DNA of 64,000 bases from positions 1,871 through 65,870 of the forward strand of contig CAUJIK010000047.1 of NCBI GenBank assembly GCA_963205255.1. The letters run 5' to 3'. Shown here one piece after another: positions 36,193-57,173 of the stretch (position 1 is the stretch's first letter; every line of letters begins with the position of its first letter). The notes below the pieces were generated by a model. The model searched no databases and was not told the origin of the DNA. It was given only the letters and a program-made list of their open reading frames with translations. This DNA is from Pseudomonadota bacterium (GTDB lineage: Bacteria; Pseudomonadota; Gammaproteobacteria; Steroidobacterales; Steroidobacteraceae). The position numbers and the translations under genes are program-made.

Positions 36193-36223
36193 AGGCTCAC
36201 ACTGGTCACACGCTCGCTGCGGA

Positions 36224-37264: not shown

Positions 37265-38322
37265 TCAAGGCTCCTTGGGTCGGGCTGCGGGCAGGCGGGG
37301 AACACATGCGCGGCCTGTGTATCCACCTGCAGAAAAACATTCTCTCCGGGCCGCGCGTCGCAGGTTCCGGAAACCTGCACATCGAAAGGTTCGGCGATGC
37401 CTTCCACGGAAAGTCGCAGCTGCTGCGAGGCGCCGAGGAAAGTCCGCGTCAGCAGCCGCGCCGGAATGCCGTCGGCGGCGGGCCTGATGTGATGCGGGCG
37501 CAGCGCCACGCAGACATCAATGTTTTCGAGAAGCCGCGGCGCGTCGAAGTTCCCCAGCGGTGTCGCGACGCGGCCGCCGATGTGGCGTCCGCGCAGCTCG
37601 ATGAGCTCGCTGCAGAAGCGGGCCGCGTACAGCGAAGCCGGCTGCCGGTAGAGTGTTTCGGGCGCGGCGTCCTGCTCGATGCGGCCCTCGCGCATCAGCA
37701 CGATGCGGTCGGCGATGCGCAGCGCCTCTTCCGGATCGTGCGTGACGATGATGGCGGTGATGCGGGCCTCGCGCAGGATGTCGAGGGTCTCGGCTCGCAC
37801 CCGGTCGCGCAGGCCGCGGTCGAGATTGGAGAACGGTTCGTCCATCAGCAGCAACCGCGGTTGCGGGGCCAGCGCCCGCGCCAGCGCCACGCGCTGCTGC
37901 TCGCCGCCGGAGAGCATGTGCGGATAGCTGTCGGCGCGCGCGCCGAGCCGCACGCGCTCGAGCGCGGCTTGCGCGCTGGCCTGATGCGCGGATCTTGCGC
38001 CGCGCAGGCCGAACATCACATTGCGCAGCACGGAAAGATGCGGGAACAGCGCGTAGTCCTGGAACACCAGGCCGATGTTGCGCCGCTCCGGCGGCACGAA
38101 TGTGCCGGAGTCGTTCAGCACCGCGCCATCCATGCTCACGCGGCCCGCATCGGGCGCTTCGAGGCCGGCGATGAGCCGCAGCAGAGTCGTCTTGCCGCAG
38201 CCCGAACTGCCCAGCAGGCAGATGATCTCGCCGGGAGCGGCGCGCAGGCTCACGTCGCGCACGGCGGTCAGCCGGCCGTAGGTGCGGCGCAGTCCCTGCA
38301 ACTCCAGTGCCGCGGCGCTCAC
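37261..38322 (-). CDS. Fe(3+) ABC importer ATPase (FbpC-like)
   Basis: Walker A GSSGCGKTT, signature LSGGEQQRVALARAL and Walker B LLLMDEPFS. I prefer the GTG at 38322 as the start because it forms a GTGA overlap with the DUF1513 stop. The longest ORF starts at 38346. Confidence 0.85.
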   Translation of the reverse strand: MSAAALELQGLRRTYGRLTAVRDVSLRAAPGEIICLLGSSGCGKTTLLRLIAGLEAPDAGRVSMDGAVLNDSGTFVPPERRNIGLVFQDYALFPHLSVLRNVMFGLRGARSAHQASAQAALERVRLGARADSYPHMLSGGEQQRVALARALAPQPRLLLMDEPFSNLDRGLRDRVRAETLDILREARITAIIVTHDPEEALRIADRIVLMREGRIEQDAAPETLYRQPASLYAARFCSELIELRGRHIGGRVATPLGNFDAPRLLENIDVCVALRPHHIRPAADGIPARLLTRTFLGASQQLRLSVEGIAEPFDVQVSGTCDARPGENVFLQVDTQAAHVFPACPQPDPRSLE

Positions 38323-39437
38323 AGATGCCTCAGGTGGTTGTCCCACGACAGCTCGCGCGAACCGGCCACCAGCAGGTGCTCGTCACTGCCCGGTCCGGCT
38401 TCGAGCATGGCGCCGTATCCGTCGCTGATGAGGAAGCGGGCCGTGCCCAGCGATGCGATGCCGCACCCATCCGCGCGCGCGGTGGCGCCGAGGCAGCGTC
38501 CATCGGCCGTGCTCCAGTAGGCGATGTGGCCGCCCACGGGACTGCTGGTGGCGACGATGCCGCGTTCGGTGTCGATGGCGATGGAGCCCAGATAGTTGCG
38601 TAATGAGCGCAGCACTTGCGGCGGGCCGGAGAACAGCTCCGGCGCCGCGCCGCGCCGATGCCGGCCCACCAGCGGTGGCTGTTGTGTCGCCGGACCTTCG
38701 TGCTGGCAGGCAAACCACACCGCTCCCGCGGCATCCACGACCAGATGCCGGATCGACAGCTGGAACAGCGCCGGCGGCAGCTCGACCTTCTCCAGCAGGC
38801 GCCCATCGGCGGCGTCCAGATACACCAGCGAAGGACGCATGGTGGTGAGGTTCAGCGAGGTCTTGCCGAAATCCGGGTGCGTGAGCAGGCCGCCATTGGC
38901 GACACACAGCGTGCGCCCGTCCGGCATCAACACCACTTCGTGCGGGCCGATGCCCGCCGTGTCGAACTCTGTCAGCCGCTGCCAGCCTGCGCCGGAGCGG
39001 GCGTCATACACGCCCAGAACGCCGCGGCCGGCCTCATAGTCGTTCTCCGTGGCATAGAGCCGCGTGGCGTCCAGCGAGAACACGCCGTGGCCGAAGTAGT
39101 GGCGCCCTTCGGGCAGTGGCAGCAGACCCTGCGGGGCGCCGTCGGTCAGGCTGAAAGCCTGCGCGAAGAAGCCTGGCTGGCGGCCGAAGGCCACGGCGCG
39201 TGAGCCTGCCGCATCGATGGCGAAGCTGTGGCCGCGATCCGGCAATGCCGCCACGGCGAGGTCGTGGCCGCGCTGATCGATCAAAGCGGCTTCGTAACGT
39301 CCGCCGAAGCGCCGTGCCGCAAGGAAGCGTGCGGGCGACGCGGCGGCGCATGCGTGCAGCCCGCGCGCACCGGCCACGCTCGCCATGCCCGCGCAGATCG
39401 CCAGAAAGGAGCGGCGCGATGTCAGGTCAGTCGCCAT
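38319..39437 (-). CDS. DUF1513 beta-propeller-like protein with a Tat signal
   Basis: The N-terminus MATDLTSRRSFLAICAGMASVAGA contains a twin-arginine motif. GHGVFSLDATRLYATENDYE and GIGPHEVVLMPDGRTLCVANGG resemble DUF1513 family members found next to imelysins. Confidence 0.75.
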   Translation of the reverse strand: MATDLTSRRSFLAICAGMASVAGARGLHACAAASPARFLAARRFGGRYEAALIDQRGHDLAVAALPDRGHSFAIDAAGSRAVAFGRQPGFFAQAFSLTDGAPQGLLPLPEGRHYFGHGVFSLDATRLYATENDYEAGRGVLGVYDARSGAGWQRLTEFDTAGIGPHEVVLMPDGRTLCVANGGLLTHPDFGKTSLNLTTMRPSLVYLDAADGRLLEKVELPPALFQLSIRHLVVDAAGAVWFACQHEGPATQQPPLVGRHRRGAAPELFSGPPQVLRSLRNYLGSIAIDTERGIVATSSPVGGHIAYWSTADGRCLGATARADGCGIASLGTARFLISDGYGAMLEAGPGSDEHLLVAGSRELSWDNHLRHL

Positions 39438-40542
39438 CGAGGGAATTGAAGCCGAGGTTCACGGCCAGCGCGGGCGCCAGATTTTCGTCCACGATGGAGC
39501 GGGCATTGGTGAGCAGCAGCTGGGCGTGTATCAGCAGATCACGCTGCGTGGCGTCGGCGAGGGCCTGGGACATGGGCAGGTCGAGTTGGTCGAAATCGGC
39601 GCGCAGGCGCCGCAGTTCGCCGCGCACGGAATCATCGATCCAGCGGTCGGATTCCGGCAGCGCGGCATCGAGCCCGCCCGCTGCGTAGAAGGCGGCCAGG
39701 GCGTCCACGCCCGCGGCGAGATAGCGTGTGGTGAGCGCGCTGCGCCACAGCGGCAGCAGCGCGCCGCGTGCCTGATCGGCGCTGGCGCCCAGCGCCGGCA
39801 CGAGCTTCTGGTCGCGCAGCACATGCAGTCCGGTGGACAGCGCCTTGAGCATCTCGGTGGCTACTTCATCGCGGCTGCGATAGATGCTGTTGTCCGCGGC
39901 CGGCCGCGAGAGTTCGCGGGCCGATGGCGCATTGCCGTTCCAGCCGGCGGCGATCTCGCGCGCCAGGCGCGCAAGGTTGGTCGCCACGGCGGCCGCCCAG
40001 GCGCAGCGGTAGCGGCCCGCTTCACCGCCCGCGATCGATTGCGCCGCGTCGTCGGCGTAGAGCGCGTATTCCAGTGCTGGCAGTCCCTGCACCGCTGCGC
40101 TCTGCTGCTGGAGCTGATCGGGAGCGAGCAGCGCCGGATCCGCGGCCGCCAGCAGCGCGCGCAACTGGCGCTGCATCACCGCGCGCGGATCGGGCCAGAA
40201 AAAGAAATGCTCCAGCCGGTTGGCCTCGGTGAGCGGACCGAAGCGCAGCAGCTCGACATGCGCCCAGGCCTCGGCAAGCTCGCCCAGCCGTCGCTCGACC
40301 AGCGCGCGGCGCGCGGCGTCGGCGGGCCGCGCGCAGTAACCTTGCACGGCCGTCTGCGTCTGCGTCGCGCTGGTCTGCAATGCGCGCGTGCGCGGCTGGA
40401 TGTATTCGCGCAGCAGCCTTGCGCCCAGGTCCGCCGGTATGGCGGCGGCGCCTGCGGTGACCCCGCCCGCCGGCGGCGCGCCGGCCGTGGCGGCGCAGCC
40501 GGTCAGCAGCGCGAGCAGGGTTGCAAGGGCGAAACGGGGCAT
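39427..40542 (-). CDS. Imelysin-like lipoprotein (peptidase M75 fold without the HxxE motif)
   Basis: ORF 39427..40743. I moved the start to ATG 40542, which gives the lipobox LLALLTGCAA. The family-typical C-terminus ...NLGFNSLDGD is present. There is no His at the position equivalent to HxxE (GLPALEYALY). Confidence 0.7.
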   Translation of the reverse strand: MPRFALATLLALLTGCAATAGAPPAGGVTAGAAAIPADLGARLLREYIQPRTRALQTSATQTQTAVQGYCARPADAARRALVERRLGELAEAWAHVELLRFGPLTEANRLEHFFFWPDPRAVMQRQLRALLAAADPALLAPDQLQQQSAAVQGLPALEYALYADDAAQSIAGGEAGRYRCAWAAAVATNLARLAREIAAGWNGNAPSARELSRPAADNSIYRSRDEVATEMLKALSTGLHVLRDQKLVPALGASADQARGALLPLWRSALTTRYLAAGVDALAAFYAAGGLDAALPESDRWIDDSVRGELRRLRADFDQLDLPMSQALADATQRDLLIHAQLLLTNARSIVDENLAPALAVNLGFNSLDGD

Positions 40543-42086
40543 CACAGTGACTCGATGAAGCGCAGCAGGTCGGCGCGCTGTGCCGGTGTCATGGCCACCA
40601 CGCGGCTGCGCGCGGCGCGCGCCTCGCCATCGTGCCACAGGATGGCCTCCAGCACGCTGCGCGCGCGCCCATCGTGCAGGAAGCTGCTGCGTTCGTTCAC
40701 CGTATGCGCAAGGCCAATGCCCCACAGCGGTGGCGTGCGCCATTCGCGGCCGTTCGCATTGCCCTCGGGACGGTTGTCGGCCAATCCATCGCCCATGTCG
40801 TGCAGCAGCAGGTCGGTGTAGGGCCAGATGAGCTGGAAACGCAGCTCCGGCAGCGCGGCGTCGCGGCGCGTGACGAATTTCGGCACATGGCAGGCCGTGC
40901 AGCGCGCTTCATGGAACAGCTGCTTGCCGGCGAGCACCTGCGGGTCGTCGATGTCGCGCCGCGCGGGCACGGCCAGGTGGTTGGAATAGAAGGTGACGAA
41001 GTCCATCAGGTCCTGCGGCACTTCCACGGGTCCGAACTGCGGCTGCGCGCCATGGGGCATGTCGAGACAGCGCTTCTGGCGGGGTGTGCACTCGCCCCAG
41101 TGGCCGGGATGCAGCGGAGTCGACAGGCCCATGTCGTCGGCGAAGGCGCGGGCGCTCTGCTGCTCCACAGTGGGCTGGCCGGCCTTCCATCCAAAGCGTC
41201 CCAGCGTCACCTCGCCGGTGTGTGCATCGCGCACGCGGCGCGCCTTGCCGCGCACACCGTCCGGATCGTCGCGCCGCTCGGCGTTGGCGAGGATGTCCGC
41301 TTCGTGCACCGATTCGAGCAGGCCCATGCCGATCATCCTGGGCGCGATGCGCGGCGAGATCATCACGTCCTTGCGCATCGGTCCGTAACCCAGATCGACG
41401 ATGCGGTAATGCGGTTTGCGCAGCCGCACCTGTTCGCCGCCGTTGAGATCCACGGTGATCTCTTCCCAGTCGATCCTCAGTCGCGCCTCGGCCGGCAGGC
41501 CGGTGACGGCAAAGTTCTGCATCTGCCCGCCGTAGGTGGGCTCGGGCAGCACCGAGAGTGATTTCTCGAGCTGCTCGCGTTCGGCGCGGTTCGTCGGCGG
41601 CACCGACAGGCGCAGGAACAGCGACACGGCTTCCTCGCCCGGATCGGGCACCACGCCGCCGCCATCCTTGATGTGGCATCCCTGGCAGGAGCGCGCATTG
41701 AACAGCGGACCGAGACCATCGGATGCCTGGGTAGAGGCGGGCGCAGCCACCCAGTCCTTGCGGAACAGCCCGTTGCCGACCTGGAAACGTTGCCGGCCCT
41801 CGAAGGGAAGATTCGCGGAGGGCTGCGAGAAGATGTCGCGGTTGATGAGCTTGTCACGCACCGTGGTCGCGCCGCCAGGCAATGCCTCGAAGCGTTCCGC
41901 GGTCGTGAACTGGTTCGCGAGGCGCGTGATCTCGCGCACCCGCGCAAGATCGGCCGCGCTCAGATCGCTGCGCTGCGCAGCCGTTTCGGCGGCCTGCGCG
42001 GCGCCGGCCGCTGCCGCCTGAACGACACCGGCGCACAGCAGGGCAGACAGCAGTGCGGTGGCGCGGTGTTTACTGGAACACGGCAT
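40542..42086 (-). CDS. Di-haem oxidoreductase / cytochrome-c-peroxidase-like protein (DUF1111 family)
   Basis: ORF 40542..42221, with the start at ATG 42086 giving a signal peptide. It has two haem-c motifs, CQGCH and CTACH. Confidence 0.8.
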   Translation of the reverse strand: MPCSSKHRATALLSALLCAGVVQAAAAGAAQAAETAAQRSDLSAADLARVREITRLANQFTTAERFEALPGGATTVRDKLINRDIFSQPSANLPFEGRQRFQVGNGLFRKDWVAAPASTQASDGLGPLFNARSCQGCHIKDGGGVVPDPGEEAVSLFLRLSVPPTNRAEREQLEKSLSVLPEPTYGGQMQNFAVTGLPAEARLRIDWEEITVDLNGGEQVRLRKPHYRIVDLGYGPMRKDVMISPRIAPRMIGMGLLESVHEADILANAERRDDPDGVRGKARRVRDAHTGEVTLGRFGWKAGQPTVEQQSARAFADDMGLSTPLHPGHWGECTPRQKRCLDMPHGAQPQFGPVEVPQDLMDFVTFYSNHLAVPARRDIDDPQVLAGKQLFHEARCTACHVPKFVTRRDAALPELRFQLIWPYTDLLLHDMGDGLADNRPEGNANGREWRTPPLWGIGLAHTVNERSSFLHDGRARSVLEAILWHDGEARAARSRVVAMTPAQRADLLRFIESL

Positions 42087-43356
42087 CTGGGTTGTCGAGG
42101 CTGTCCGAGCCCTCGATGGACACACTGCCCAGGGCCAGCGCCTGCACCACGCGCTCGGTGCTGCGGGTCTGGGCGATGAGGCTGTCGATGGCTGATTGCA
42201 CCAGTGCATTCCCTTCGACATTGCCCGCGCCGATCATCTGGTCGTAAGCCTCGGTGGTGCGGGCGCGCTCCCGGATGCGCTCCAGCGCGGCAACGCTGGC
42301 TTCGAGCCGGTTGCGCATTTCGCCATCGAGCGCCGCATCACGCGCGCGCACCAGATCGGACAGCGACGGGCCGCTGACCAGCGTGCCGTCGGTGCGCCGG
42401 TAGCTGCCCAGATAGACGTTCTGCATGCCGAGCTGGCCGTAGTAGTGCGAGTTGTGGGTGTTGTCGGAGAAGCAGTCGTGCTCTTCCTCCGGGTCGTGGA
42501 GGATCAGGCCCAGCTTCATGCGTTCGCCGGCCAGTTCGCCATAGGACAGCGAGCCGATGCCCGTGAGCATGGCGCCGAGCGCTGCCGTCTGGCCTTCCTG
42601 ATGCAGGCGCATACGTGCCGCGCCATCCTGGCGCCAGTTCGCGACCATTTCCTCAAGGTCGCTGATCAGCAGCGCGGTCGCGGCCTTCAGATAGTCGACG
42701 CGGCGCTGGCAATTGCCGCCAGTGCAGTTGGCGGGATCGAAATCAGTGGCTGGCCGGTCACCGGCTCCAGGCCCGGTTCCATTCAGGTCCTGGCCCCACA
42801 GCAGGAACTCGATGGCGTGATAACCCGTGGCCACGTTGGCCTCGATGCCGCCGATCTCGTGCAGGGATTCCGACAGCAGCTGGGTGGTGATGGCGCTGGC
42901 GTCGATCTCGCGGCCGCCGATGTGCAGCTTCGGGTTCGCGATCACATTGGCCGCGTACCAGGCGTTGGCATCGGATTCGCTGCCGTAGCTCGCGTCCACA
43001 TAGTCGATGAGCCCTTCATCCAGCGGCCAGGCGTTCACGCGTCCTTCCCAGTCATCGACGATGGGGTTGCCGAAGCGGAACACCTCGGTCTGCAGGTAAG
43101 GCACGCGCGCGGCAAGCCACGCCTTGCGGGCGGCGTCGAGGTGCGTGGCGTTCGGGGTCGCCACCAGGGTGTCCACCGCCTGCGCCAGCTCCCGGGCGCC
43201 CGCATTGGCGTCCTCGTAGGCGGCCAGGGCGATGTTGGCGTAGGTGTCCACGACATTGGCTTCGGCGCCCTGCGCAACCAGATGGGCAGCCGGGAACAGC
43301 GTCAACCACAGAGCTGCCGCGAGGCGGCGCTTTCTGCCAGAAGGGATTTCAATCAT
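42070..43356 (-). CDS. Imelysin-family protein (IrpA / iron-regulated protein A-like) with an HxxE motif
   Basis: Signal peptide, then TYANIALAAYEDA..., GYHAIEFLLWGQD (the HxxE motif) and RVDYL. Confidence 0.8.
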   Translation of the reverse strand: MIEIPSGRKRRLAAALWLTLFPAAHLVAQGAEANVVDTYANIALAAYEDANAGARELAQAVDTLVATPNATHLDAARKAWLAARVPYLQTEVFRFGNPIVDDWEGRVNAWPLDEGLIDYVDASYGSESDANAWYAANVIANPKLHIGGREIDASAITTQLLSESLHEIGGIEANVATGYHAIEFLLWGQDLNGTGPGAGDRPATDFDPANCTGGNCQRRVDYLKAATALLISDLEEMVANWRQDGAARMRLHQEGQTAALGAMLTGIGSLSYGELAGERMKLGLILHDPEEEHDCFSDNTHNSHYYGQLGMQNVYLGSYRRTDGTLVSGPSLSDLVRARDAALDGEMRNRLEASVAALERIRERARTTEAYDQMIGAGNVEGNALVQSAIDSLIAQTRSTERVVQALALGSVSIEGSDSLDNPDAVFQ

Positions 43357-43366
43357 GGGAGGGGGA

Positions 43367-43385
43367 GCAAATGAGAATGACTATC
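43367..43385. promoter_or_regulatory. Candidate Fur box in front of the imelysin operon
   Basis: GCAAATGAGAATGACTATC matches 13 of 19 positions of GATAATGATAATCATTATC. It lies 11-29 nt upstream of the imelysin ATG, in the 78-nt intergenic gap. It shares AATGAGAA with the box at 15117. Confidence 0.45.
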
Positions 43386-43434
43386 AAGAAGATACCGGAA
43401 CCTGGCCTTCCTGACCATGGGTGCGGGGCCTGCT

Positions 43435-44607
43435 TTACAGCGCGAGGGCGTCTCCCTGTGCCTCGGCCTCCATCAGGAGGCGCACGGCTTCGCGTTCGGT
43501 CTGGCTGAGGCCAGGATGCCAGACATCGAAGATCAGGACCACGCGCAGCTCACCGCTGGTATTGGCCGCTTCATGCTCGATGGTGTCGTCGAATACGAAG
43601 GCCTTGCCACGCTCCCAGAGGCGGGTTTGTGCCCCCACCCGGAACCAGCAGCCCTCGGGCACGATCAGCGGCAGATGGCACAGCAGGCGGGTATTGGAGA
43701 CCCCGGTGTGCGGCGGGATCAGGGTTCCCGGCGCCAGCATGGAGAACACGGCGTTGGGTGAGCAGCCGCCGATGCGCGGCTGCGGCAGGCGCGCCAGCAG
43801 TTCCATGGTATGCGGGCAGTGCCGGGCGTTGGCCTCGATGCGGCGGCCATACTGCCAGAGGTGGATGGCGGTCCAGTCGCGGTTGTTGTTGAGCCCGGCC
43901 CATTGCATCAGCGGCTCGTGGTCCGGATAGCGTATGTAAGGCACGAGTTCGGCCTTTTCGGCTGCCGCGACGGCGGCGAACTCGGCCGCGATGACGTCGG
44001 TCGCGGCTTCGAGTTCCCCAAGCCATGGAAACAGACTGCGGTCGTGGAACTCGTGCTCGACCAGGCCGGGAAAATGGAAATGGCTGGGCTCGCTGTGGAA
44101 GACGCGCGTTTTGCGTACCGCGTTGGTGCGGAACCGTGCGATGTGTTGTTGTTCTCCGGCGGTGGCACCCGCCGTGACGCCGGAGAGCACGTCGGCCAGC
44201 TGCTGGTCATGCGAATCGACATATGCCGCGCTCACCTGTTCCGCGCGAGCCAATGCCCGTTCCAGCGGCGGCGCCAGCGGGCCGCGTGGCTTCTGCGCCA
44301 GGGCGCGTCCGTAGGCCTCACCGGCTCCCGGGTGACCCATGCGTTCCAGCAACGAGGCCTTGCTCAGCAGCGCGGTAAAATCCAGTGGCGCCAGCGCCAG
44401 CGCCCGGTTCACCGCGGCCAGCGCATGCTCGACATCTCCCTGCGCGGCGCAGAGAGAGCCGAGCTTGAGCCAGCTCTGCATATCCGGCTGGACAGATATC
44501 GCGCGTTCCAGCAGTGCGCGAGCGCTGCGCAGGTCGCCGCGCGCTGCGGCGGCATCGGCCTGCTGTGCCAGCGCGGCGGCCGGCAGTGGCTCAGATGGTG
44601 TAGCCAT
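43435..44607 (-). CDS. TPR-repeat protein fused to an aspartyl/asparaginyl beta-hydroxylase (2OG/Fe(II) oxygenase) domain
   Basis: The N-terminus carries TPR-like repeats. The C-terminus reads LAPGTLIPPHTGVSNTRLLCHLPLIVP...FDDTIEHEAAN, which supplies the His ligands of the AspH/LpxO-type fold. There is no signal peptide. Confidence 0.8.
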   Translation of the reverse strand: MATPSEPLPAAALAQQADAAAARGDLRSARALLERAISVQPDMQSWLKLGSLCAAQGDVEHALAAVNRALALAPLDFTALLSKASLLERMGHPGAGEAYGRALAQKPRGPLAPPLERALARAEQVSAAYVDSHDQQLADVLSGVTAGATAGEQQHIARFRTNAVRKTRVFHSEPSHFHFPGLVEHEFHDRSLFPWLGELEAATDVIAAEFAAVAAAEKAELVPYIRYPDHEPLMQWAGLNNNRDWTAIHLWQYGRRIEANARHCPHTMELLARLPQPRIGGCSPNAVFSMLAPGTLIPPHTGVSNTRLLCHLPLIVPEGCWFRVGAQTRLWERGKAFVFDDTIEHEAANTSGELRVVLIFDVWHPGLSQTEREAVRLLMEAEAQGDALAL

Positions 44608-46603
44608 GACGCTCGATCCAGGGCTGAAGTGTGGGTATCACGGGCTCCAGCCAGGGGCGATAACGTTGCCAGCGGCCTTTCGCCCGCGTGTACAGCGGTT
44701 CTGTGACCTGCGCGTAGCTGGCGGTAGTGATCAGGCCGCGACCGGATGCCGTGCGCTGATGGTCCAGCACCTTGTCGGCCCATTCGAGGCCCAGCCAGTC
44801 GAACAGCGGGCGCAGTTCGGCATTGCTGTTCTCGACCATGCGCTCGTAGTGCACCGTGTGGCAGTCGAGGTTCATCATCTGCCGGCATTGCTCCCAGTAG
44901 CCGAAGCTCTGATCGTACAGCCAGGCGGCGCTGTCCAGTTCGAGGAAGCAGGACATTGCATTGTTGAGCCGGAAGTTGGTGATGTAGCAGCTCAGCAGCA
45001 CGTCCAGCGGATGGCGCAGCGCCAGCACGAAGCGCGCTTCGGGGAACAGGCGGTGGATGACGGGCACCCGGTTCAGGTGCAGCGGGGATTTGTCGATCAG
45101 CAGCGCATCCTCGCGCAGGTCGATCCAGCGCTGCGCCTCTTTGAAGTAGAGATCCCGGAAGCCGGCGATATCCGCGGCGGACAGCGTCGGCAGTGCGGCA
45201 ATGCCACCTAGCTCGCGCTCCACCACGGCGACCGGCGGGCGCTCTTCCAGCACCTGCACGCGCGCATGCCCCATCAGGATGGTGTCCAGCAGCGTCGTGC
45301 CCGAGCGCGGAAACCCGACCAGGAAAACCGGCGCGGCGCGACCGGTCGGCGGCGCTTCGCGTCGCCAGGAGGCATGCCACTGCGCAGTCACCAGTTCGCG
45401 ATTGCGCGTCAGCGTGGTGCGATATTCGCTGGCGCGCCGCAGGGGCTCGCTGGGATCCTGCTGCTGCAGGCGGTTCATCTGCGCAAACGCTTCGAAGGCC
45501 TGCCCGGCATGGCCGAGCCGGTCGTGGCACTGGCCGCGCAAGTGCGCGACCTGCACCGGCTCCAGATCCACGGGAACCTGATCCAGTTCGGCCAGCCCCT
45601 GTTCGAAGCGGCCCTCGCGCCGGCATTGCAGCGCAGCGAGGAAGTGCGTGACGCCGGCTCCGATGTCACCGGCGCGCGCGGCCTGCACCAGGGGCGCAAT
45701 GCCCTCAGGTTGGTTGCTGAGCTCCAGATGCAAAGCCAGCAGCACATAGGCTTCGTCCAGCGATGGGTTCAGCGTCAGCGCGTTGCGGAATGCTGTTTCT
45801 GCCCCATCCATCTGCCAGGCAAACTGTCGTTCGATGCCCAGACGGATCTGCAGGGTCGCATCCTGGGGCGCAAGCTGTGCCGCCTCTTCGAGCCACTGCA
45901 GTGCCTCCGTGTCACGTCCCTGTATCTTGGCGAGAGCCGCCAGCTGCACACGCGGCTTTTCGTCGCCCGGGAAATCTCTGGAATAAGTCTTCAATGCCGC
46001 CTCTGCTTCCGCGAGGCGGTTCAGCTGCACCAGTGTGGTTGCCTGGTTGAAACGCGCCGGCGCATTACGGGGCTGCAGCGCCACGGCCTTGTCCATGGCT
46101 GCAAGACCTGCATCGCTCTCACCGCTGGCGGCCAGCGCATTGCCGAGATTGTTCCAGCTCTCGAAGTCGCCGGGAGTCGTCGCGACAATGTCTCGGTAGG
46201 CTGCCGCTGCTGCTGCCGGTTCGCCGCCGTGCAGCAGCAGGTAAGCGCGCAGCCGCAGCAGTCGCCTCGAGGCATCGGTCCGGCACAGCGGTTCCGGGCA
46301 CGCGTCCAGCGCGCCTGCCATGTCGCCGCTGTCGGTGAGCGCGCGCACGAGGTTGCAGCGTACGGCGATGTCGTCGGGCTTGTGCTCGAGCGCGCTGTGG
46401 AAATGCCTGATCCCTGCCGCGAAATTGCCGGCTTGGCATTCCAGACTCCCCAACAGCGCGTGGAAGATTTCCGGTGCTTCGTTTCCTTTCAGTCCGGCCT
46501 GGGCCGCGGCACGAGCGCCTGCGGCGTCGCCACTGCGGGCGCAGGCCAGAGCGCGTTGGATCAGCCGCACAGTGGGTGCGGAGGGCGTCGGATTTGCGGC
46601 CAT
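44591..46603 (-). CDS. TPR-repeat protein fused to a PAPS-dependent sulfotransferase domain
   Basis: ORF 44591..46639. About 400 aa of TPR repeats are followed by FLVGFPRSGTTLLDTIL (5'-PSB loop) and LALRHPLDVLLS (3'-PB motif). I prefer the ATG at 46603 as the start because the ATG at 46639 sits in a terminator loop. The gene overlaps the hydroxylase gene by 17 nt. Confidence 0.8.
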   Translation of the reverse strand: MAANPTPSAPTVRLIQRALACARSGDAAGARAAAQAGLKGNEAPEIFHALLGSLECQAGNFAAGIRHFHSALEHKPDDIAVRCNLVRALTDSGDMAGALDACPEPLCRTDASRRLLRLRAYLLLHGGEPAAAAAAYRDIVATTPGDFESWNNLGNALAASGESDAGLAAMDKAVALQPRNAPARFNQATTLVQLNRLAEAEAALKTYSRDFPGDEKPRVQLAALAKIQGRDTEALQWLEEAAQLAPQDATLQIRLGIERQFAWQMDGAETAFRNALTLNPSLDEAYVLLALHLELSNQPEGIAPLVQAARAGDIGAGVTHFLAALQCRREGRFEQGLAELDQVPVDLEPVQVAHLRGQCHDRLGHAGQAFEAFAQMNRLQQQDPSEPLRRASEYRTTLTRNRELVTAQWHASWRREAPPTGRAAPVFLVGFPRSGTTLLDTILMGHARVQVLEERPPVAVVERELGGIAALPTLSAADIAGFRDLYFKEAQRWIDLREDALLIDKSPLHLNRVPVIHRLFPEARFVLALRHPLDVLLSCYITNFRLNNAMSCFLELDSAAWLYDQSFGYWEQCRQMMNLDCHTVHYERMVENSNAELRPLFDWLGLEWADKVLDHQRTASGRGLITTASYAQVTEPLYTRAKGRWQRYRPWLEPVIPTLQPWIERHGYTI

Positions 46604-46620
46604 GCCGGGATCGTAAGACA

Positions 46621-46655
46621 AAAAAAGGGTGGTGGGCATGGCCCACCACCCTTTT
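46621..46655 (-). terminator. Rho-independent terminator after the TonB-dependent receptor
   Basis: An 11-bp GC stem, GGGTGGTGGGC / GCCCACCACCC, with a short loop. A run of 7 U follows on the minus strand (the A-run at 46620-46626 on the plus strand). It begins about 25 nt after the receptor stop. Confidence 0.7.
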
Positions 46656-46680: not shown

Positions 46681-49600
46681 TTACAGCTCGATGGACACGC
46701 TCGCAAAGACATAGCGTCCCAGCGCGTCATAGACCGCCGGATACGTGTTGCCATTGCAGGGGCCCGTCGGGCACTGGTTGCGGGTGCCGTTCGCGCGACC
46801 GCTGGAGACCAGCGGCGGTGTCTTGTCGAACATGTTGTTCATGCCCAGGCGAACCGTGTATTTCTCGGAGAAGGTGTACCAGCCTGACAGGTCGAAGTAG
46901 TTCTGCGCCCCGAGCTTGGCGCTGAACGGATCGTACGGACCCTCGAGGCTCTGGTTGGAACTGGAGAAGTCCACCTTCACATCGCCGAAGTAGCGCCACT
47001 GGATCGAGGCGCCCAGACCGTTGGGGCGGGTCAGCGACAGTCGCGCATTGTGCCGCCACTTGGGAGTGGGAGCCGACGGAGTACCGCTGAGGTTCGAGCA
47101 GGTTGCGCCGTAGTAGCCCGCGCAGTCGTAGGGCACGGACAGGCCGTTGTCCACCTCGTACTTGTCGATCAATGTGCCGATCAGGTCGGCAGACAGCTTG
47201 CCGATGCCGAGGTTGAACGTATAGGCCGCGTTGAAGTCGATGCCTGTGGTATGCACGCCACCGATATTCGACTGCAGGTTCACGATGTAGCCATCGGGAG
47301 TCAGCCACAGCGAACCGCTCACCGGGTTGCGGTGGATCAGGTCGCAGACGGCCGGATCAGCTGTCGCCGTACAGGTGTTGATGATGGCATCCGAGCCGAA
47401 GCCCTGGATGGCATCGCGCACCTTGATGTCGTAGTAGTCGATGGTGAGCGAGAAGTTGGGCAGAAAGCCCGGCTCCAGGATCACGCCCAGCGACTTGGTG
47501 GTGGCACGCTCGGGCAGCAGGGTGGGTGTGCCACCCAGGTAGGCGTTGTACTGGCCCGCGGGGTTGCCCGAGACGACCTGGCCGACGGACAGGCCCTGCG
47601 CCAGGCAGCCCGCGTTGTCTGCCGTGATGATTTCGTCGGCACAGGGATCCGCCGAACCATCCAGACCCACGTAGTTCGGGGAGAACAGTTCCTGGATGTT
47701 GGGTGCGCGCACCGCCCGGTTCAGGCCCGCGCGGAAGCGGATGTCGCGGATGGGTGCGAACTCGAAGCCGTACTTGTAGGTGTCGGTGTTGAAGCTGCGG
47801 TTGTTCGAAGTCTTGTACTGCGAATAGCGGTAGCCGGCATTGACCGTCAGATCGTAGACCGCGCCCTGCGACACGATGGGCAGCTGTGCTTCGGCAAACA
47901 GGTCATTGGTCTTGATCGAGCCGTAGACGGGCAGTTTGGGCGCGCCCTGGCCCGTGAGATCGCCGGTCATGAAAGCCTGGTCGGTCTGGAACTGCAGCGA
48001 GTCCTTGCGGTGCTCGATACCGAAGGCAACGCCCAGGCCATAGTCGGACCAGGGCGTGACCACGCCGTATTCCCCGAGCTTGCCGGTCATCGAGGCGCTG
48101 GCCACCTGCTGGTCCACGTTGCCGCGCGCAAAGCCGACGGCGGAGAGATAGCCGACCGCCTCCTGGGACACGGCGCCGCCGCTCAGGATGTCATAGGGCA
48201 CGCAGCCCGGGTCCGAGCCGTCGACCACCGAACGGCACACTGGCTGGCCAAAGGTGGCCGCGTCTGCTCTCGGGTCGCTGACCACGTCCAGTGCGCGGTT
48301 CAGACGGGCGACGGAGAGCTCGTTCAGGTAGGTCTCCGCATAGTTGGTGCGACCGAACTGGTAGTAGGCGTCATAGTTCCACGCCTTGCTCAGGTCGCCC
48401 TTGACGCCCACCAGCGTGCGATACGAGGTGTGAGTCAGATCGTCGACGCGCGGGCCGCCTTCGACGTTGCGCCGCAGCGGCTGGAAGAAGGCCTTGTTGT
48501 AGTTGGCGCCGGTGGTTGGGTCGATGAAGCTCAGCGGCGCCACGCCCGGGTGCGTGAAGGAGGTCAGCGGGACGGTACCGAGGAAGCCATTCACCTGGTT
48601 CTCAGGGTCGCAGATGATGGCTGCCTGCTGCGCTGAGATCAGCGGGTTGTCGCAGTTGATCATCAGCGTGTTGCCGAAATTGCCCGAGGGGGCAATCTGC
48701 GCGATCGAGCGGTCGTCCATGAACATGAATTCCATGTACGGCTGGATCGAGTCGCTGACTTCGTAGCTGGCGAACAGGCCGCCGGTGTAGCGCTCGTCCG
48801 GGCGCTGGAAGTAGTTCGTGGGAGCGAAGTTGTAACGGTCGATGGTCGGTACCAGCTGGCGGCCGGCGCCGAAGCCGTACACTGTAGAGAACAACGTGGT
48901 GGCATCGCTGTCGTAAAGGACCACGTGGCCCGGTGCGCCGGTCAGAGAGCCGCCGCACTGCAGTGTCGTTGCGTTCACGTCCTGGATGGTGCAGGCACTG
49001 AAGTCGCGCTGGTCCTGCGTCACCGCGTCGACGCGGCGGTAGCCTACGTAAGCAGTGAGATGCCCCTTCCCATCGGCAAAGCTGGTGCCCATGGTTGCCG
49101 TGGCATCCCAGGCGCCGCCATCGGTCACATGCTTCTTGGGTTCTTCAAAACCGGCGAAGCCGGCATTGCGGCGCGCTGCCAGCAGCGGCGGCACGATCTT
49201 GTTGTTGTTGTCGTGCTGATAGAAGCTGTACTGCACGTCGGCCCTGAAGCCTTCAAACTTGTCGTCCATCAGGAAGTTCACGACGCCGGCAACGGCGTCG
49301 GCGCCGTAGGTGGCCGATGCGCCGCCGGTCATCACCTCGACGCGCTTGATCAGCGCGGCAGGGATGGCATTGATGTCCGCCGCGAGTGAGCCGGAGCCAC
49401 TGGGCTCGCCCGGCATCATGCGACGCCCGTTGATCAGTACCAGCGTGCGGGCGGCGCCCAGGCCACGCAGATCCACCGTTGCGGTGCCGTCCGCGGCGTT
49501 CGACAGCGTGCTCGCCTGGCCGGCGAACACCTGCGGCAGGCGGTTGAGCATGTCCTCGACGCGCACCGTACCCTGGATCTTGAAGTCTTCCGACGTGACC

Positions 49601-49782
49601 GTGGTCACCGGGCTGATGCCTTCGAGATTCGGTTGTGCAATGCGCGAACCGGTGACGATCACTTCGGTCAGCGCTTCTTCGGCTTGCTGCGCCAGCGCGC
49701 TGCCAGTGGATATGAGCGTCGCCGCAGCAAAGCTCGCGGTGATGCATGAACGGACCGCAATCCGGATATTGTTGGATCTCAC
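46681..49782 (-). CDS. Large TonB-dependent receptor (about 1030 aa)
   Basis: ORF 46681..49920. I prefer the GTG at 49782 as the start because it follows a GAGGAGG Shine-Dalgarno sequence. It has the signal RSNNIRIAVRSCITASFAAATLISTGSALAQQ, the plug VIVTGSRIAQPNLEGISPVTTVTSEDF and the terminal ...YVFASVSIEL. Confidence 0.9.
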   Translation of the reverse strand: MRSNNIRIAVRSCITASFAAATLISTGSALAQQAEEALTEVIVTGSRIAQPNLEGISPVTTVTSEDFKIQGTVRVEDMLNRLPQVFAGQASTLSNAADGTATVDLRGLGAARTLVLINGRRMMPGEPSGSGSLAADINAIPAALIKRVEVMTGGASATYGADAVAGVVNFLMDDKFEGFRADVQYSFYQHDNNNKIVPPLLAARRNAGFAGFEEPKKHVTDGGAWDATATMGTSFADGKGHLTAYVGYRRVDAVTQDQRDFSACTIQDVNATTLQCGGSLTGAPGHVVLYDSDATTLFSTVYGFGAGRQLVPTIDRYNFAPTNYFQRPDERYTGGLFASYEVSDSIQPYMEFMFMDDRSIAQIAPSGNFGNTLMINCDNPLISAQQAAIICDPENQVNGFLGTVPLTSFTHPGVAPLSFIDPTTGANYNKAFFQPLRRNVEGGPRVDDLTHTSYRTLVGVKGDLSKAWNYDAYYQFGRTNYAETYLNELSVARLNRALDVVSDPRADAATFGQPVCRSVVDGSDPGCVPYDILSGGAVSQEAVGYLSAVGFARGNVDQQVASASMTGKLGEYGVVTPWSDYGLGVAFGIEHRKDSLQFQTDQAFMTGDLTGQGAPKLPVYGSIKTNDLFAEAQLPIVSQGAVYDLTVNAGYRYSQYKTSNNRSFNTDTYKYGFEFAPIRDIRFRAGLNRAVRAPNIQELFSPNYVGLDGSADPCADEIITADNAGCLAQGLSVGQVVSGNPAGQYNAYLGGTPTLLPERATTKSLGVILEPGFLPNFSLTIDYYDIKVRDAIQGFGSDAIINTCTATADPAVCDLIHRNPVSGSLWLTPDGYIVNLQSNIGGVHTTGIDFNAAYTFNLGIGKLSADLIGTLIDKYEVDNGLSVPYDCAGYYGATCSNLSGTPSAPTPKWRHNARLSLTRPNGLGASIQWRYFGDVKVDFSSSNQSLEGPYDPFSAKLGAQNYFDLSGWYTFSEKYTVRLGMNNMFDKTPPLVSSGRANGTRNQCPTGPCNGNTYPAVYDALGRYVFASVSIEL

Positions 49783-50030
49783 GATGGATTCCTCCTCTGG
49801 TACGGCTCGGCGTGCGCCTGCGTATCGTAAAGTTCTAGTGTCGTAAAAAGACCACCCGACAATGGCTGCGATTCCGTTGAAGACACGCACCCCACGGGTG
49901 CGACCGGAACCGTCGGGCAAGGACAGATTATGTAGAGTCTGCGATTCAAGGCTTAAATTCTAAGCTTAATAAAGCTCTTCGCGCTTATATATATTCTATC
50001 TTCTACCTCAACAGTGACTGCCGGGACATC

Positions 50031-50564
50031 ATGGAGAGCCGCAACGTGAGTTCATTCACAGTTCAAGGTCTGCTGGGGCTCGCGACTGTTGTTTTTTTGC
50101 ATACCGCAGTGCGGGCGCAGGAATCGGTGTCGGTTCCTGCTGGTCCCGTGGCGGATTTGCTGCGCTGCCGCGAGCTTGCGGGTGAGTCCGCGCGGTTGAC
50201 CTGTTTCGATGCCGCCGTGGCCGGCATCGAGCAGGCGGTGCGGGCCGGAGACCTGCGTGTGGTGGATCGAGCGGTGCTGGCCGAGGAGCAGAGCGCGCGC
50301 TTCGGGCTGCGGGAGGCCGACCGGGCGCGGGGCGCGGTGGAACAGCCGGAGGAGCTTTCCGCGGCGGTGAAATCTGCGCAGAAGACTCTCGATGGATGGG
50401 TGGTGACGCTGGAGGACGGTTCTGTCTGGCGTCAGATCGATGCCAGGACCAGCCCGGTGGATCCTGTCGTTGGCCAGGTCGTCACCATCAAGCGCGCTGC
50501 GCTGGGCAGCTACCGGTTGCTGCTCAATTCAAATGTGGGTTTCAGGGTGCGCCGCGTGCGCTGA
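50031..50564 (+). CDS. Hypothetical secreted protein
   Basis: 177 aa with the signal peptide LLGLATVVFLHTAVRAQE. I recognise no family. It is divergent from the large TonB receptor across an AT-rich region. Confidence 0.5.
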   Translation: MESRNVSSFTVQGLLGLATVVFLHTAVRAQESVSVPAGPVADLLRCRELAGESARLTCFDAAVAGIEQAVRAGDLRVVDRAVLAEEQSARFGLREADRARGAVEQPEELSAAVKSAQKTLDGWVVTLEDGSVWRQIDARTSPVDPVVGQVVTIKRAALGSYRLLLNSNVGFRVRRVR

Positions 50565-50577
50565 CGAAATAAAGAAA

Positions 50578-50608
50578 AAGCCTGGGCAACTTCCGTTGCC
50601 CAGGCTTT
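50578..50608. terminator. Bidirectional rho-independent terminator (stronger for ompA on the minus strand)
   Basis: A 13-bp stem AAGCCTGGGCAAC-TTCC-GTTGCCCAGGCTT. On the minus strand it is followed by TTTTTCTTTATTT, and on the plus strand only by TTT. Confidence 0.75.
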
Positions 50609-50644
50609 CACGCGGATCTTTCCGGCCCTTTCAGGCCGTCGCGA

Positions 50645-51730
50645 TCAACGTGTGTCGGTACGACGCAGCACCACGCGGCGGTTCTGCGCGCGGCCTTCGG
50701 CCGTCGCGTTGTCCGCCTCGGGCTGGGTCTCACCGTAGCCCACCGACTCCAGACGCGAGCCGTCGACACCGCGATCCGTGAAGTACTTCTTCACGGAGTC
50801 GGCGCGACGCTGCGACAGGCGCAGGTTGTAGGCATCGGCGCCGGTGCTGTCGGTGTGGCCTTCGACCACGCCCTTGGCAGTCGGCACCGTGTCCTTGAAG
50901 AACTCGACCGCGCGGTCGAGGTCAGCCTGGGCCGCCGCCTTGATGTTGGCGGAATCGGTGTCGAACAGCACCTCCAGGCGCACCGCCAGGCTGCAACCCA
51001 CGGAGTCCACGGCGTCGCCGGCGGGCGTCTGCGGGCAGCGGTCGGCCGAATCCGGCACGCCGTCCTTGTCGCCATCCGCCGGAGGCGGCGGGGGAGGCGG
51101 CGGCGGGGGCGGGGGAGGCGGCGGGGGCGGCGGCGGAGTCGCCGCTACCGGCGCGGCCGGAGCCGTGCCGCCGAAGGCCACCTGCAGGCCGAGGCCCACG
51201 TACGGGTCGAGGAGCGCTTCGCCGACGAAATAGCGCAGGCCGGCATCGGCGCGCAGCTGCAGCTTCGTGCCCTTGCTGGATTCGGCGATGTCGCCGAGGA
51301 AGCCGGCGCCCACGTTGGCGAACAGCGACTCGGCAAACGACAGGTCATCGGTGCCGCCGTACTGGCCAATGGGATTGATGCCGTCCGCGAAGCCAATGCC
51401 GCCCAGCAGGAACGGGCTGGTGCGGCCAGCGCGGTTGAACACGCGCTCCATGTCGATGCCGGCGCCATGCAGTTCCTTCTTGGAGCCGCCGGCGAAGGGC
51501 TTGTGCTCGCTGACGAAGGCGCTGACGTTGAGGTTCCACTGCTCGCTCAGTACGCGGCCGATGTTGAGCTTCAGGCCGCTGCCTTCATCCACTCCCCAGC
51601 CATGGTCGGAGAACAGGTGGAAGGGCTGCACGCCAATGATCGTTGCGCCGGGGTCCTCGCCGCCGGCCTGCGCGCCCGTCGCGCCCAGCAGGGCGGTCGC
51701 GATGGCGAGCGATAACAGGGACTTCTTCAT
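50645..51730 (-). CDS. OmpA-family outer-membrane protein (MopB/OprF-like: beta-barrel, poly-Pro hinge, TSP3-like Ca-binding repeats, OmpA_C)
   Basis: A signal peptide and barrel, then 19 consecutive Pro residues and DGDKDGVPDSADRCPQTPAGDAVDSVGC. The OmpA_C domain reads VEGHTDSTGADAYNLRLSQRRADSV. Confidence 0.9.
   Translation of the reverse strand: MKKSLLSLAIATALLGATGAQAGGEDPGATIIGVQPFHLFSDHGWGVDEGSGLKLNIGRVLSEQWNLNVSAFVSEHKPFAGGSKKELHGAGIDMERVFNRAGRTSPFLLGGIGFADGINPIGQYGGTDDLSFAESLFANVGAGFLGDIAESSKGTKLQLRADAGLRYFVGEALLDPYVGLGLQVAFGGTAPAAPVAATPPPPPPPPPPPPPPPPPPPADGDKDGVPDSADRCPQTPAGDAVDSVGCSLAVRLEVLFDTDSANIKAAAQADLDRAVEFFKDTVPTAKGVVEGHTDSTGADAYNLRLSQRRADSVKKYFTDRGVDGSRLESVGYGETQPEADNATAEGRAQNRRVVLRRTDTR
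51080..51136 (-). repeat. (CCN)19 proline-codon tract; the complementary plus strand carries four G5 runs
   Basis: Counting codon by codon gives 19 consecutive CCG/CCC/CCT codons. The plus strand has GGGGG at 51090-94, 51105-09, 51111-15 and 51123-27. Confidence 0.9.
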
Positions 51731-54520: not shown

Positions 54521-54582
54521 GGCGGCCATCCTACAAGGTTGTGCGGCGTGCACGAAGCGAGCCCGCTTCCAGCCGTTACACT

Positions 54583-57147: not shown

Positions 57148-57173
57148 TTCCCTTGAGATGGAGGTCGATTCCC

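Follow-up and report, generated by a model that had tools for sequence, protein, structure and literature searches.

TPR-fused AspH-type hydroxylase and TPST-like sulfotransferase genes in a conserved cluster with a TonB-dependent receptor gene

Genes and signals at the locus

The window, a 64,000-nucleotide stretch of Steroidobacteraceae DNA, carries on its minus strand two adjacent genes whose products each join TPRs to a modifying enzyme. HYD (43435-44607, minus strand) encodes a 390-aa protein with an AspH-type 2OG/Fe(II) Asp/Asn beta-hydroxylase domain, and ST (44591-46603, minus strand) a 670-aa protein with a TPST-like PAPS sulfotransferase domain. A sequence-only reading of this DNA had noted a 17-nt overlap between the two; the ORF coordinates place it where ST stops and HYD starts (44591-44607, minus strand), an arrangement of translational coupling that is found likewise in the two closest relatives. 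The longest ST frame spans 44591-46639 (minus strand), but the ATG at 46603, the start chosen in that reading, is the better one, since an intrinsic-terminator-like hairpin (46623-46655, minus strand), whose 15-bp stem precedes a T run, falls within the part that the longer frame adds at its 5' end. This hairpin, between the receptor gene and ST, also argues that read-through from the receptor gene would be attenuated.

Directly upstream of ST, where it had been placed before, lies the gene of a dedicated TonB-dependent receptor of about 1033 aa (46681-49782, minus strand). Its start has been corrected to a GTG at 49782, behind a GGAGGA ribosome-binding site; the product has a Sec signal, the TonB box EVIVTGSRI, and plug and beta-barrel Pfam domains. 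The N-terminal extension previously ascribed to the receptor was an artefact of an over-long ORF and is gone with the corrected start. Solved catecholate receptors match the protein in the plug only.

The receptor gene is divergent from o177 (50031-50564, plus strand), which encodes a secreted protein of 177 aa bearing the motifs CR..RLxC[FY]D, LFG, and GSY. The region between them (49783-50030) is AT-rich and has one sigma-70-like match on the plus strand. A consensus scan found no Fur-like box upstream of the receptor gene (best score, 10/19), and 49783-50030 gave no Rfam match, to a riboswitch or otherwise. An unrestricted motif search of the promoter regions was swamped by GC-rich coding k-mers; an AT-restricted pass, used in its place, identified a palindrome in the promoter regions of other, Sphingomonadales, loci that is absent from the window. 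No Pfam or NCBIfam family covers o177, and its AF2 model (pLDDT 84) has no fold match in the PDB (best E, 0.15). A profile search nevertheless retrieves 9,722 representative clusters, bringing to notice a large unannotated protein family.

On the other side of the module, a Fur-box-like site (43367-43391), which at 14/19 is the best in the whole window, separates the HYD stop from an imelysin/DHOR/imelysin/DUF1513 operon. The module has neighbours for iron uptake (an FbpABC-like ABC transporter, the imelysin operon, feoAB) in the window and its closest relatives, the latter with feoAB in place of the imelysin operon. Thus, the pair does sit directly before a Fur-box iron operon, as first described; however, since none of the 80 related loci inspected carries those genes near the pair, a functional tie is rejected and the adjacency is considered incidental. 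The statement that no precursor-like, exporter, or glycan gene adjoins the pair is correct for the window, and neither a RaxX-like precursor peptide nor a peptidase-containing ABC exporter is present around it.

Relationships of the two enzymes

A Pfam search bears out both fusions. In HYD, PF05118 (Asp_Arg_Hydrox) covers residues 203-365 (E 8.5e-44, 149.6 bits against a cut-off of 22.6) and TPRs lie N-terminal to it, at residues ~7-115; in ST, PF13469 (Sulfotransfer_3; E 2.3e-31, 110 bits against a cut-off of 27) is accompanied by numerous TPRs. The PPHTG and DDTIEHE motifs of HYD are present, as are the PAPS loops FPRSGTT and RHPLDVLLS of ST. The catalytic motifs of both are intact, as stated earlier for the PAPS loops: H300, H345, and R355 are invariant in 20 HYD homologues, and PRSGTTL, EE, DKSP, and RHP...S in 21 ST homologues. 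Judged by these residues, both enzymes look catalytically competent.

Human AspH matches HYD with an E of 1.6e-30 (109.6 bits). Both have TPRs ahead of a DSBH oxygenase, and their oxygenase cores are about 40% identical; they also share an unusual two-His iron site that lacks a carboxylate (HxG...H) and the 2OG-binding Arg, such that H300-T-G, H345, and R355 of HYD align with H679-T-G, H725, and R735 of AspH. The AF2 model of HYD (pLDDT 86) has as its top Foldseek matches the human AspH TPR+oxygenase structures (E 4e-17, ~390 columns aligned), and the oxygenase domain alone matches 5apa with a TM of 0.80 and an rmsd of 3.3. However, the TPR region of HYD is shorter, and the domain orientation differs in the model (global TM 0.46-0.48). 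In addition, human AspH is a type II membrane protein that works in the ER lumen on disulfide-bonded EGF domains, whereas HYD is soluble and apparently cytoplasmic. By inspection, neither HYD nor ST has a signal-like or hydrophobic N-terminal segment, in agreement with the earlier statement that both lack signal peptides and TM helices, and both are apparently placed in the cytoplasm. The predicted activity of HYD is beta-hydroxylation of Asp or Asn in a protein.

The catalytic domain of ST aligns over its whole length with human TPST2/TPST1 (E 8e-15, ~1e-14). PRSGTTL, E453/E454, K505, and R530...S538 of ST align with the TPST2 5'-PSB loop, catalytic Glu and Lys, and 3'-PB motifs; the equivalent of TPST2 Ser285 is Gly. 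The Sulfotransfer_3 domain, PRSGTTL, the equivalent catalytic Glu and Lys, and the 3'-phosphate-binding motif are common to TPST1/2, RaxST, and ST. Unlike these enzymes, ST has a ~420-aa N-terminal TPR array, which resembles the peptide-binding TPRs of OGT (E 2e-20). RaxST, which acts on RaxX, exemplifies the sulfation of ribosomal peptides by bacteria in the cytoplasm ahead of secretion; the ST locus differs from Xanthomonas RaxST-RaxX in lacking both a RaxA/RaxB-type exporter and a RaxX-like precursor. O-sulfation of Tyr in a polypeptide is a candidate activity for ST. Since the nearest solved relatives of the two enzymes, human AspH and TPST1/2, modify proteins, a polypeptide recruited through the TPRs would be the most natural substrate. 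The TPR fusions could, instead, mediate assembly of the enzymes with one another.

Genomic coupling of a 2OG beta-hydroxylase to a P-loop sulfotransferase has been described before. For operons with both, hydroxylation of proteins followed by their sulfation was predicted (Iyer et al. 2010, PMC2938197), and an Erythrobacteraceae lasso-peptide cluster includes an Asp beta-hydroxylase together with a sulfotransferase (PMC10040529). Those systems, however, include PhyH-methyltransferase, collagen-like or tail-collar substrates, or lasso cyclase and protease genes, and are without the TPR fusions, the receptor, and o177. No description of the TPR-HYD/ST/receptor cluster was found in the literature searched.

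The cluster in related genomes

HYD and ST contribute the enzymes to a conserved module of four genes, in which o177 diverges from the receptor gene and the latter is followed by ST and HYD. At least 595 species genomes were matched, and neighbourhoods were counted in 80 related loci. Orthologous full-length receptors (~1030 aa, 40-62% identity) adjoin HYD within 10 kb in 63-71 of the 80 loci, spread over four orders; o177 lies divergently beside the receptor gene in 53, and ST is present in 49. Thus, the conserved unit is the receptor, o177, and HYD rather than the HYD/ST pair. In Alpha-, Beta-, and Gammaproteobacteria alike, HYD is accompanied by the receptor and o177, which are the only partners conserved in all clades, including the reduced form in the window. 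The earlier statement that such pairs recur beside TonB receptors is true of Sphingomonadales and Caulobacteraceae, to which Nevskiales/Steroidobacteraceae and Burkholderiales can be added; Xanthomonadaceae proper are absent from the 80 loci. Nevskiales have a receptor-HYD pair followed by an Opp/Dpp-type ABC importer, while Burkholderiales loci have no ST and two HYD paralogues, located between exbB/exbD and the receptor gene.

Most Sphingomonadales clusters encode in addition a third TPR-fused oxygenase (F3) and one to four small proteins, termed f7, so that the absence of an adjacent precursor does not extend to them. Three different enzyme classes are then found in one cluster, all with an N-terminal TPR fusion. 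The f7 proteins are 80-110 aa long, with a Sec signal and a Cys-loop, and have the motif DPNExVCE-x5-GSRL-x3-KRVC-x-T-x2-EW; they lack a conserved Tyr, and their disulfide loop encloses a close copy of the TonB box found in the receptor itself. A reciprocal f7-anchored search, limited to a closer f7 subset because the first alignment was too diverse, found one of the cluster's enzymes immediately upstream in every informative locus (63/63). Of the 16 loci whose upstream sequence reaches 8.5 kb or more, 15-16 have the order receptor-ST-HYD/F3-f7. In most Sphingomonadales, f7 is obligately linked to the cluster. Part of the synteny within Sphingomonadales may reflect shared ancestry and not function.

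Within the 80 loci, f7 is limited to Sphingomonadales (28/55) and consequently cannot be the universal substrate. The window is a reduced version of the cluster without the third oxygenase and f7: tblastn and a six-frame search with an f7 HMM gave no credible homologue of either in its 64 kb (the best f7 match, E 0.016, falls in a non-coding-looking frame), and both are missing from its closest relatives as well. A YbiX-type hydroxylase (F17) is an optional extra gene, present in 11/80 clusters. Another protein, F16, was set aside as a second sulfotransferase: its hhalign match, in which the P-loop aligned, was weak (probability 31%), and there was no Pfam or PDB match.

The f7 proteins fit the paradigm of the bufferins, small Sec-signal Cys proteins that are MNIO-modified RiPPs and receive their modification in the cytoplasm (PMC11626156). 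Both are small (60-70 aa when mature) and encoded beside cytoplasmic modifying enzymes, and by analogy modification of f7 is a candidate. The enzymes differ, being MNIO/DUF2063 for bufferins and TPR-oxygenases plus a sulfotransferase for f7, and a bufferin-like protein beside the enzymes is a feature of the related clusters, not of the window.

Possible roles of the enzymes and receptor

The nearest studied analogue of the cluster is the partnership of CciT and CciO, in which a Caulobacter receptor strictly requires an adjacent cytoplasmic 2OG dioxygenase; this work, from 2025, was the first genetic proof that one such receptor needs its oxygenase (PMC12004947). In CciT-CciO, Fiu-YbiX, and PiuA-PiuC, as here, a dedicated receptor is syntenic and co-conserved with a cytoplasmic 2OG oxygenase across Proteobacteria, and YbiX-type genes even occur inside some HYD clusters. 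However, HYD is a PF05118 protein with TPRs and is not of the PKHD/YbiX type, the receptor is Fiu/PiuA-like in its plug domain only and has no Fur box in the consensus scan, and the module adds the TPST-like ST and o177, joined in relatives by the third TPR-oxygenase and f7.

The best reading, which is advanced tentatively and falls somewhat short of being probable, is that a polypeptide functionally tied to the receptor undergoes TPR-guided hydroxylation and sulfation. In this model, the TPR solenoids would hold an extended polypeptide, the AspH-like domain would beta-hydroxylate an Asp or Asn of it, and the TPST-like domain would move sulfate from PAPS to a hydroxyl, either that of Tyr or the newly made beta-OH. 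Both modifications would take place in the cytoplasm, ahead of Sec export of the target, and the product would then work at or through the dedicated receptor as a ligand, shuttle, or partner, as in model 1 for CciT-CciO. The f7 proteins would be the best candidate substrates in the fuller Sphingomonadales clusters. Because the window has neither F3 nor f7, the target there would be encoded elsewhere in the genome, or would be o177 or the receptor itself. The earlier proposal of a two-enzyme polypeptide-modifying system is supported in part, by the apparent competence of the enzymes, their AspH/TPST kinship, and the conserved link to the receptor; the pair as the unit is not supported, ST being present in only 49/80 loci.

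It has also been considered that the enzymes process cargo. The receptor would bring in a compound from outside, for instance a peptide or metal chelate, and the compound would be hydroxylated and sulfated in the cytoplasm so as to free a nutrient or metal, to make it harmless, or to sustain the import gradient, as in models 2 and 3 for CciO/PiuC/YbiX. CciT-CciO itself, for which the models are still open (PMC12004947), is a precedent, and the YbiX-type gene in some clusters, the Nevskiales importer, and the iron-uptake genes next to the module in the window and its closest relatives agree with such a role. However, most clusters do not encode an inner-membrane importer, the receptor gene lacks an upstream Fur-like box, adjacency to iron genes is limited to close relatives, PAPS-dependent sulfation would be odd for catabolism, and proteins are the substrates of both enzymes' closest homologues. 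Cargo processing is judged rather unlikely.

Modification of the transport apparatus itself appears quite improbable. Here the enzymes would act in the cytoplasm on the nascent receptor, on o177, or on a protein of the TonB complex before export, thereby tuning the receptor, an idea consistent with the conservation of the receptor and o177 as sole partners in all clades and with the position of the Burkholderiales HYD paralogues. In addition, an invariant C-x-D in o177 is reminiscent of the C-x-D/N with which the AspH consensus begins, although this likeness is short and was noticed post hoc. No beta-barrel precursor is known to us to be hydroxylated or sulfated in the cytoplasm, which counts against the idea. 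Furthermore, Caulobacter CciT is still made without CciO, although CciO belongs to a different enzyme family (PMC12004947). Still more improbable is lipid modification, in which HYD would act on a membrane lipid in the manner of LpxO or OlsC and ST would make a sulfolipid. OlsC (88 bits) and LpxO (54.3 bits) are the best NCBIfam matches of HYD, but HYD falls well short of the cut-offs of both families (450 and 500, respectively), and either identity is rejected on that ground. HYD also has no membrane segment by inspection and is nearer to human AspH, with which it shares the TPR architecture; ST is TPST-like, unlike lipid or carbohydrate sulfotransferases; and the cluster has no lipid-synthesis genes. 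An LpxO-like role had been thought unlikely from the start, and these results agree.

A further, more novel reading is that the cluster represents a receptor-ligand system of a previously unrecognised kind. The f7 proteins, and possibly o177, would be hydroxylated and sulfated in the cytoplasm by the TPR-guided AspH/TPST homologues, exported by Sec, and would engage the receptor or TonB. This is unlikely as it stands; if true, f7 or o177 could act as a proteinaceous shuttle or metallophore, given that Fe(III) is classically bound by beta-hydroxy-aspartate, or as a regulator of the gate, and the window would have the reduced form, in which the enzymes, the receptor, and o177 remain.

Cytoplasmic 2OG oxygenases are often found beside TonB-dependent receptors (YbiX, PiuC, CciO), and the HYD cluster, a second, independent, and widespread case, bears on why this is so. 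Its enzymes also indicate the class of substrate: they are homologues of the protein-modifying AspH and TPST, all fused to peptide-binding TPRs and, in many genomes, obligately linked to arrays of small exported proteins. Given this kinship, the fusions, and the f7 arrays, the question is open to direct tests, by mass spectrometry and by genetics, in tractable Sphingomonas or Caulobacter relatives. Finally, bacterial AspH-like and TPST-like enzymes encoded side by side bear on the origin of modifications made in the animal secretory pathway.

Two TPR-fused enzymes and their gene models

Both minus-strand genes of the sequence-only reading, each described as a TPR-fused enzyme with particular catalytic motifs, are present by ORF and domain profile checks. 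HYD, the hydroxylase (43435-44607, minus strand; 390 aa), carries N-terminal TPRs and a C-terminal Asp_Arg_Hydrox domain (PF05118, E 8.5e-44) with the motifs PPHTG and DDTIEHE. ST, the sulfotransferase (44591-46603, minus strand), combines a long array of TPRs with a Sulfotransfer_3 domain (PF13469, E 2.3e-31) that contains FPRSGTT and RHPLDVLLS. The 17-nt overlap reported between them (44591-44607) is also found identically in the two closest relatives, and the two genes are translationally coupled. The longest ST ORF begins at 46639, inside a hairpin (46623-46655; 15-bp stem, T tail) just past the receptor stop codon; consequently, the ATG at 46603, which had been chosen originally, is likely the ST start. 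This hairpin probably attenuates read-through into ST from the gene for the TonB-dependent receptor (46681-49782, minus strand). The receptor ORF was itself over-called. From the corrected start (GTG at 49782, preceded by the ribosome-binding site GGAGGA), a normal Sec signal is followed by the TonB box EVIVTGSRI, and the N-terminal extension previously attributed to the receptor disappears. As first described, neither HYD nor ST has a signal peptide or hydrophobic segment, as judged by inspection only.

The closest solved relative of HYD is human AspH (E 1.6e-30). His300 (of H-T-G), His345, and Arg355 align with AspH His679 (of H-T-G), His725, and Arg735 and are invariant across 20 HYD homologues (58-78% identity). 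The top Foldseek matches of the AlphaFold model (pLDDT 86) are two-domain human AspH structures comprising TPR and oxygenase (E 4e-17, ~390 aligned columns, TM 0.46-0.48), while the oxygenase domain alone superimposes on AspH with a TM of 0.80 and an rmsd of 3.3 Å. Thus, HYD and AspH share the same domain order, but the predicted inter-domain angle differs. Human TPST2 and TPST1 match the ST catalytic domain over its whole length (E about 1e-14). Aligned features, all invariant in 21 homologues, are the PRSGTTL loop, a pair of Glu residues where TPST2 has its catalytic Glu99, the DKSP Lys (Lys158), and the 3'-phosphate motif RHP...S. One difference is that Ser285 of TPST2 is replaced by Gly. 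For the TPR region of ST, the best match is to the TPRs with which O-GlcNAc transferase binds peptides (E 2e-20). The catalytic residues are therefore invariant rather than degenerate in both proteins, and given this conservation of residues and motifs, HYD and ST both look active. They belong to the AspH-like and TPST-like families proper, and the nearest relatives of each are polypeptide-modifying enzymes.

Conserved partners across genomes

A hydroxylase alignment scanned against one genome per species matched at least 595 loci, and the best 80 were analyzed: 55 from Sphingomonadales, 7 from Caulobacteraceae, 8 from Nevskiales/Steroidobacteraceae and unclassified Gammaproteobacteria, 9 from Burkholderiales and other Betaproteobacteria, and 1 from Parvularculaceae. 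Neighborhoods were mapped by tblastn with the window proteins, all-against-all ORF clustering, and family HMMs on six-frame translations; many of the 80 loci are cut by contig ends. Among these best 80, an orthologous full-length receptor (40-62% identity) lies near HYD in 63-71, a homologue of the divergent 177-aa protein o177 (50031-50564, plus strand) in 53, ST in 49, and F3, a third TPR-fused oxygenase (PF13759 2OG-FeII_Oxy_5, TIGR02466-like), in 51. Thus, the co-occurrence of hydroxylase, sulfotransferase, and receptor proposed earlier stands for the receptor, but ST is not universal. These counts reveal that the enzymes are conserved partners of o177 and of a single receptor orthogroup; within one cluster, up to three enzyme classes are fused to TPRs.

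The composition varies. In a Burkholderiales variant without ST, exbB-exbD and then two hydroxylase paralogues lie beside an oppositely oriented receptor gene; in a Nevskiales variant, an Opp/Dpp-type ABC importer comes after receptor and HYD. Certain clusters further encode F17, a YbiX/PiuC-type hydroxylase, together with F16, a 338-aa protein with a weak match to the catalytic domain of ST (hhalign probability 31%). This second enzyme set, in which F16 provides a weakly sulfotransferase-like P-loop and which often includes a second AspH-like paralogue, parallels the ST/HYD/F3 set (L005, L013, L016, L019, L058, L059, L070, L074, L101).

In the o177 protein, a signal peptide is accompanied by an invariant C-x11-C with RLxC[FY]D, the motif LFG, and a six-stranded C-terminal domain ending in GSY...R. 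It matches no Pfam or NCBIfam family, none of its homologues has a Pfam domain, and those named at source are all "hypothetical" except one labeled FtsQ/DivIB. Its AF2 model is confident (pLDDT 84) and has no fold match in the PDB. Against 1.84 billion representatives, its profile matched 9,722 clusters when the cut-off was E <= 1e-3 and 842 when it was E <= 1e-30, with lengths almost always of 170-190 aa; o177 is part of a very large unannotated secreted family of ~175 aa. Between o177 and a convergent OmpA-family gene (50645-51730) lies a strong hairpin flanked on either side by T/A runs (50576-50609), probably a bidirectional terminator.

Fuller clusters also encode candidate substrates, the f7 proteins, small products (80-110 aa) with Sec-type signal peptides (by inspection) and the common core DPNExVCE-x5-G[ST]RL-x3-[KR]RxC-x-T-x2-[EQ]W, which match no Pfam or NCBIfam family. 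One to four f7 genes follow HYD or F3 in 28 of the 55 Sphingomonadales loci among the best 80 of at least 595; such arrays were seen in L003-L048 and L083-L162 (e.g., L006 12728-13659). In a reciprocal test, metagenome contigs were scanned with an f7 alignment, which returned 80 loci, 63 of them extending 400 bp or more upstream. A cluster enzyme lies directly upstream on the same strand in 63/63, and the order receptor-ST-HYD/F3-f7 is found in 15-16 of the 16 loci whose upstream sequence reaches 8.5 kb or more. Consequently, the f7 subfamily scanned is an obligate member of the operon, although shared ancestry contributes to this linkage, since the f7 loci may all be related Sphingomonadales. 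Neither F3 nor f7 has a homologue within the 64-kb window or in its nearest relatives (L001 and L002, 63-65% identity; P0009 and P0003, 71-78%); the window module is only o177, divergent from receptor-ST-HYD.

Iron genes and regulation

The pair had been described as adjoining a Fur-box iron operon. A Fur-like site is indeed present in the 78-bp gap downstream of HYD (43367-43391; 14/19, the best of the whole window in a consensus scan), and belongs to the neighboring operon. That operon comprises four genes (imelysin, di-haem DHOR, imelysin-like, and DUF1513; 38319-43391, minus strand) and is followed by an FbpABC-like ferric ABC transporter (34546-38346). However, the imelysin/DHOR/DUF1513 operon is found in 0 of the best 80 of at least 595 loci, and the adjacency is therefore local. 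The operon and transporter form an iron-uptake island that is, by conservation, unrelated to HYD/ST. In the receptor promoter region, the best match to the Fur consensus is only 10/19.

Within the sub-clade of the window, the module is embedded in a chromosomal region that is conserved (MatE, CNNM, FBPase, FbpABC-like ABC transporter), and the iron-uptake cassette beside it varies: the window has the imelysin operon, L163 has feoAB together with another receptor. In L163 (the contig of P0009) and in the contig of P0003, a convergent feoAB after ST-HYD replaces the imelysin operon, and synteny with the window persists in the outer flank (FBPase, ABC transporter, CNNM, MatE). Thus, the same slot is filled by different iron-uptake cassettes in the window and its closest relatives, a context that hints only weakly at a link to metals.

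An 18-bp palindrome, TGTrGCAAwwTTGCyACA, is conserved between o177 and the receptor in many Sphingomonadales loci (e.g., L035, L037, L038, L033, L010, L015) and looks like an operator. The window, L001, and L002 lack it; reduced clusters therefore seem to be regulated differently from the loci that bear it.

Possible roles of the module

HYD and ST look like competent enzymes, cytoplasmic as judged by inspection only. In the reading that we tentatively prefer, at somewhat less than even odds, they make a polypeptide product for the receptor. The TPRs would present an extended polypeptide, HYD would put a beta-hydroxyl on Asp or Asn, ST would sulfate a hydroxyl, either that of Tyr or the new beta-OH, and the modified product would then work with the receptor. 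Sulfation of a newly made beta-OH was proposed by Iyer et al. for other hydroxylase-sulfotransferase operons (PMC2938197). Bufferins are small Sec-signal Cys proteins whose modification in the cytoplasm precedes export (PMC11626156), and the Caulobacter receptor CciT has a strict requirement for the cytoplasmic dioxygenase CciO encoded next to it (PMC12004947); these precedents make a polypeptide product plausible. For CciO, its authors consider that it makes the receptor substrate, removes an inhibitor, or oxidizes an imported substrate (PMC12004947). Processing of cargo by HYD and ST is rather doubtful. It is improbable that they modify the receptor, o177, or the TonB machinery, and lipid chemistry is very improbable indeed: HYD scores far under the cut-offs of the LpxO/OlsC profiles (54 against 500 and 88 against 450), which rejects that identity and agrees with the earlier view that an LpxO-like role is unlikely.

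A more unusual version of the polypeptide-product reading comes from f7. The Cys-Cys loop of f7 (e.g., EDIVLTGSRLATKR) holds, in several paralogues, a near-copy of the receptor TonB box, as in CEDIVLTGSRLATKRFC versus the consensus [DE]I[IV]VTG[ST]RIPQPNL, or DIVLTGSRLA versus DIVVTGSRIP of the neighboring receptor. This resemblance is suggestive, but the motif is short and was noticed post hoc. That the cluster is a system for a modified, TonB-box-bearing protein ligand is nonetheless unlikely.

The module works like the CciT-CciO, PiuA-PiuC, and Fiu-YbiX pairs in combining a receptor with an oxygenase, but its oxygenase family and receptor type differ and it is without a Fur box; on these points, membership in that class fails. 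The earlier observation that no precursor or exporter lies by the pair holds in the window, and assignment to the RaxST-RaxX or bufferin systems fails for this reason. Full-text literature searches found no paper describing this cluster; related but distinct neighborhoods appear in Iyer et al. 2010 (PMC2938197) and in a lasso-peptide cluster table (PMC10040529).

Elsewhere, the window contains an ordinary glycogen/alpha-glucan cluster (54214-63074; DUF3417-phosphorylase, GlgB branching enzyme, ADP-glucose pyrophosphorylase-like protein, and GH57 enzyme), unrelated to the module, and two large adjoining GGDEF-EAL proteins of 772 and 715 aa (25949-30589, minus strand).
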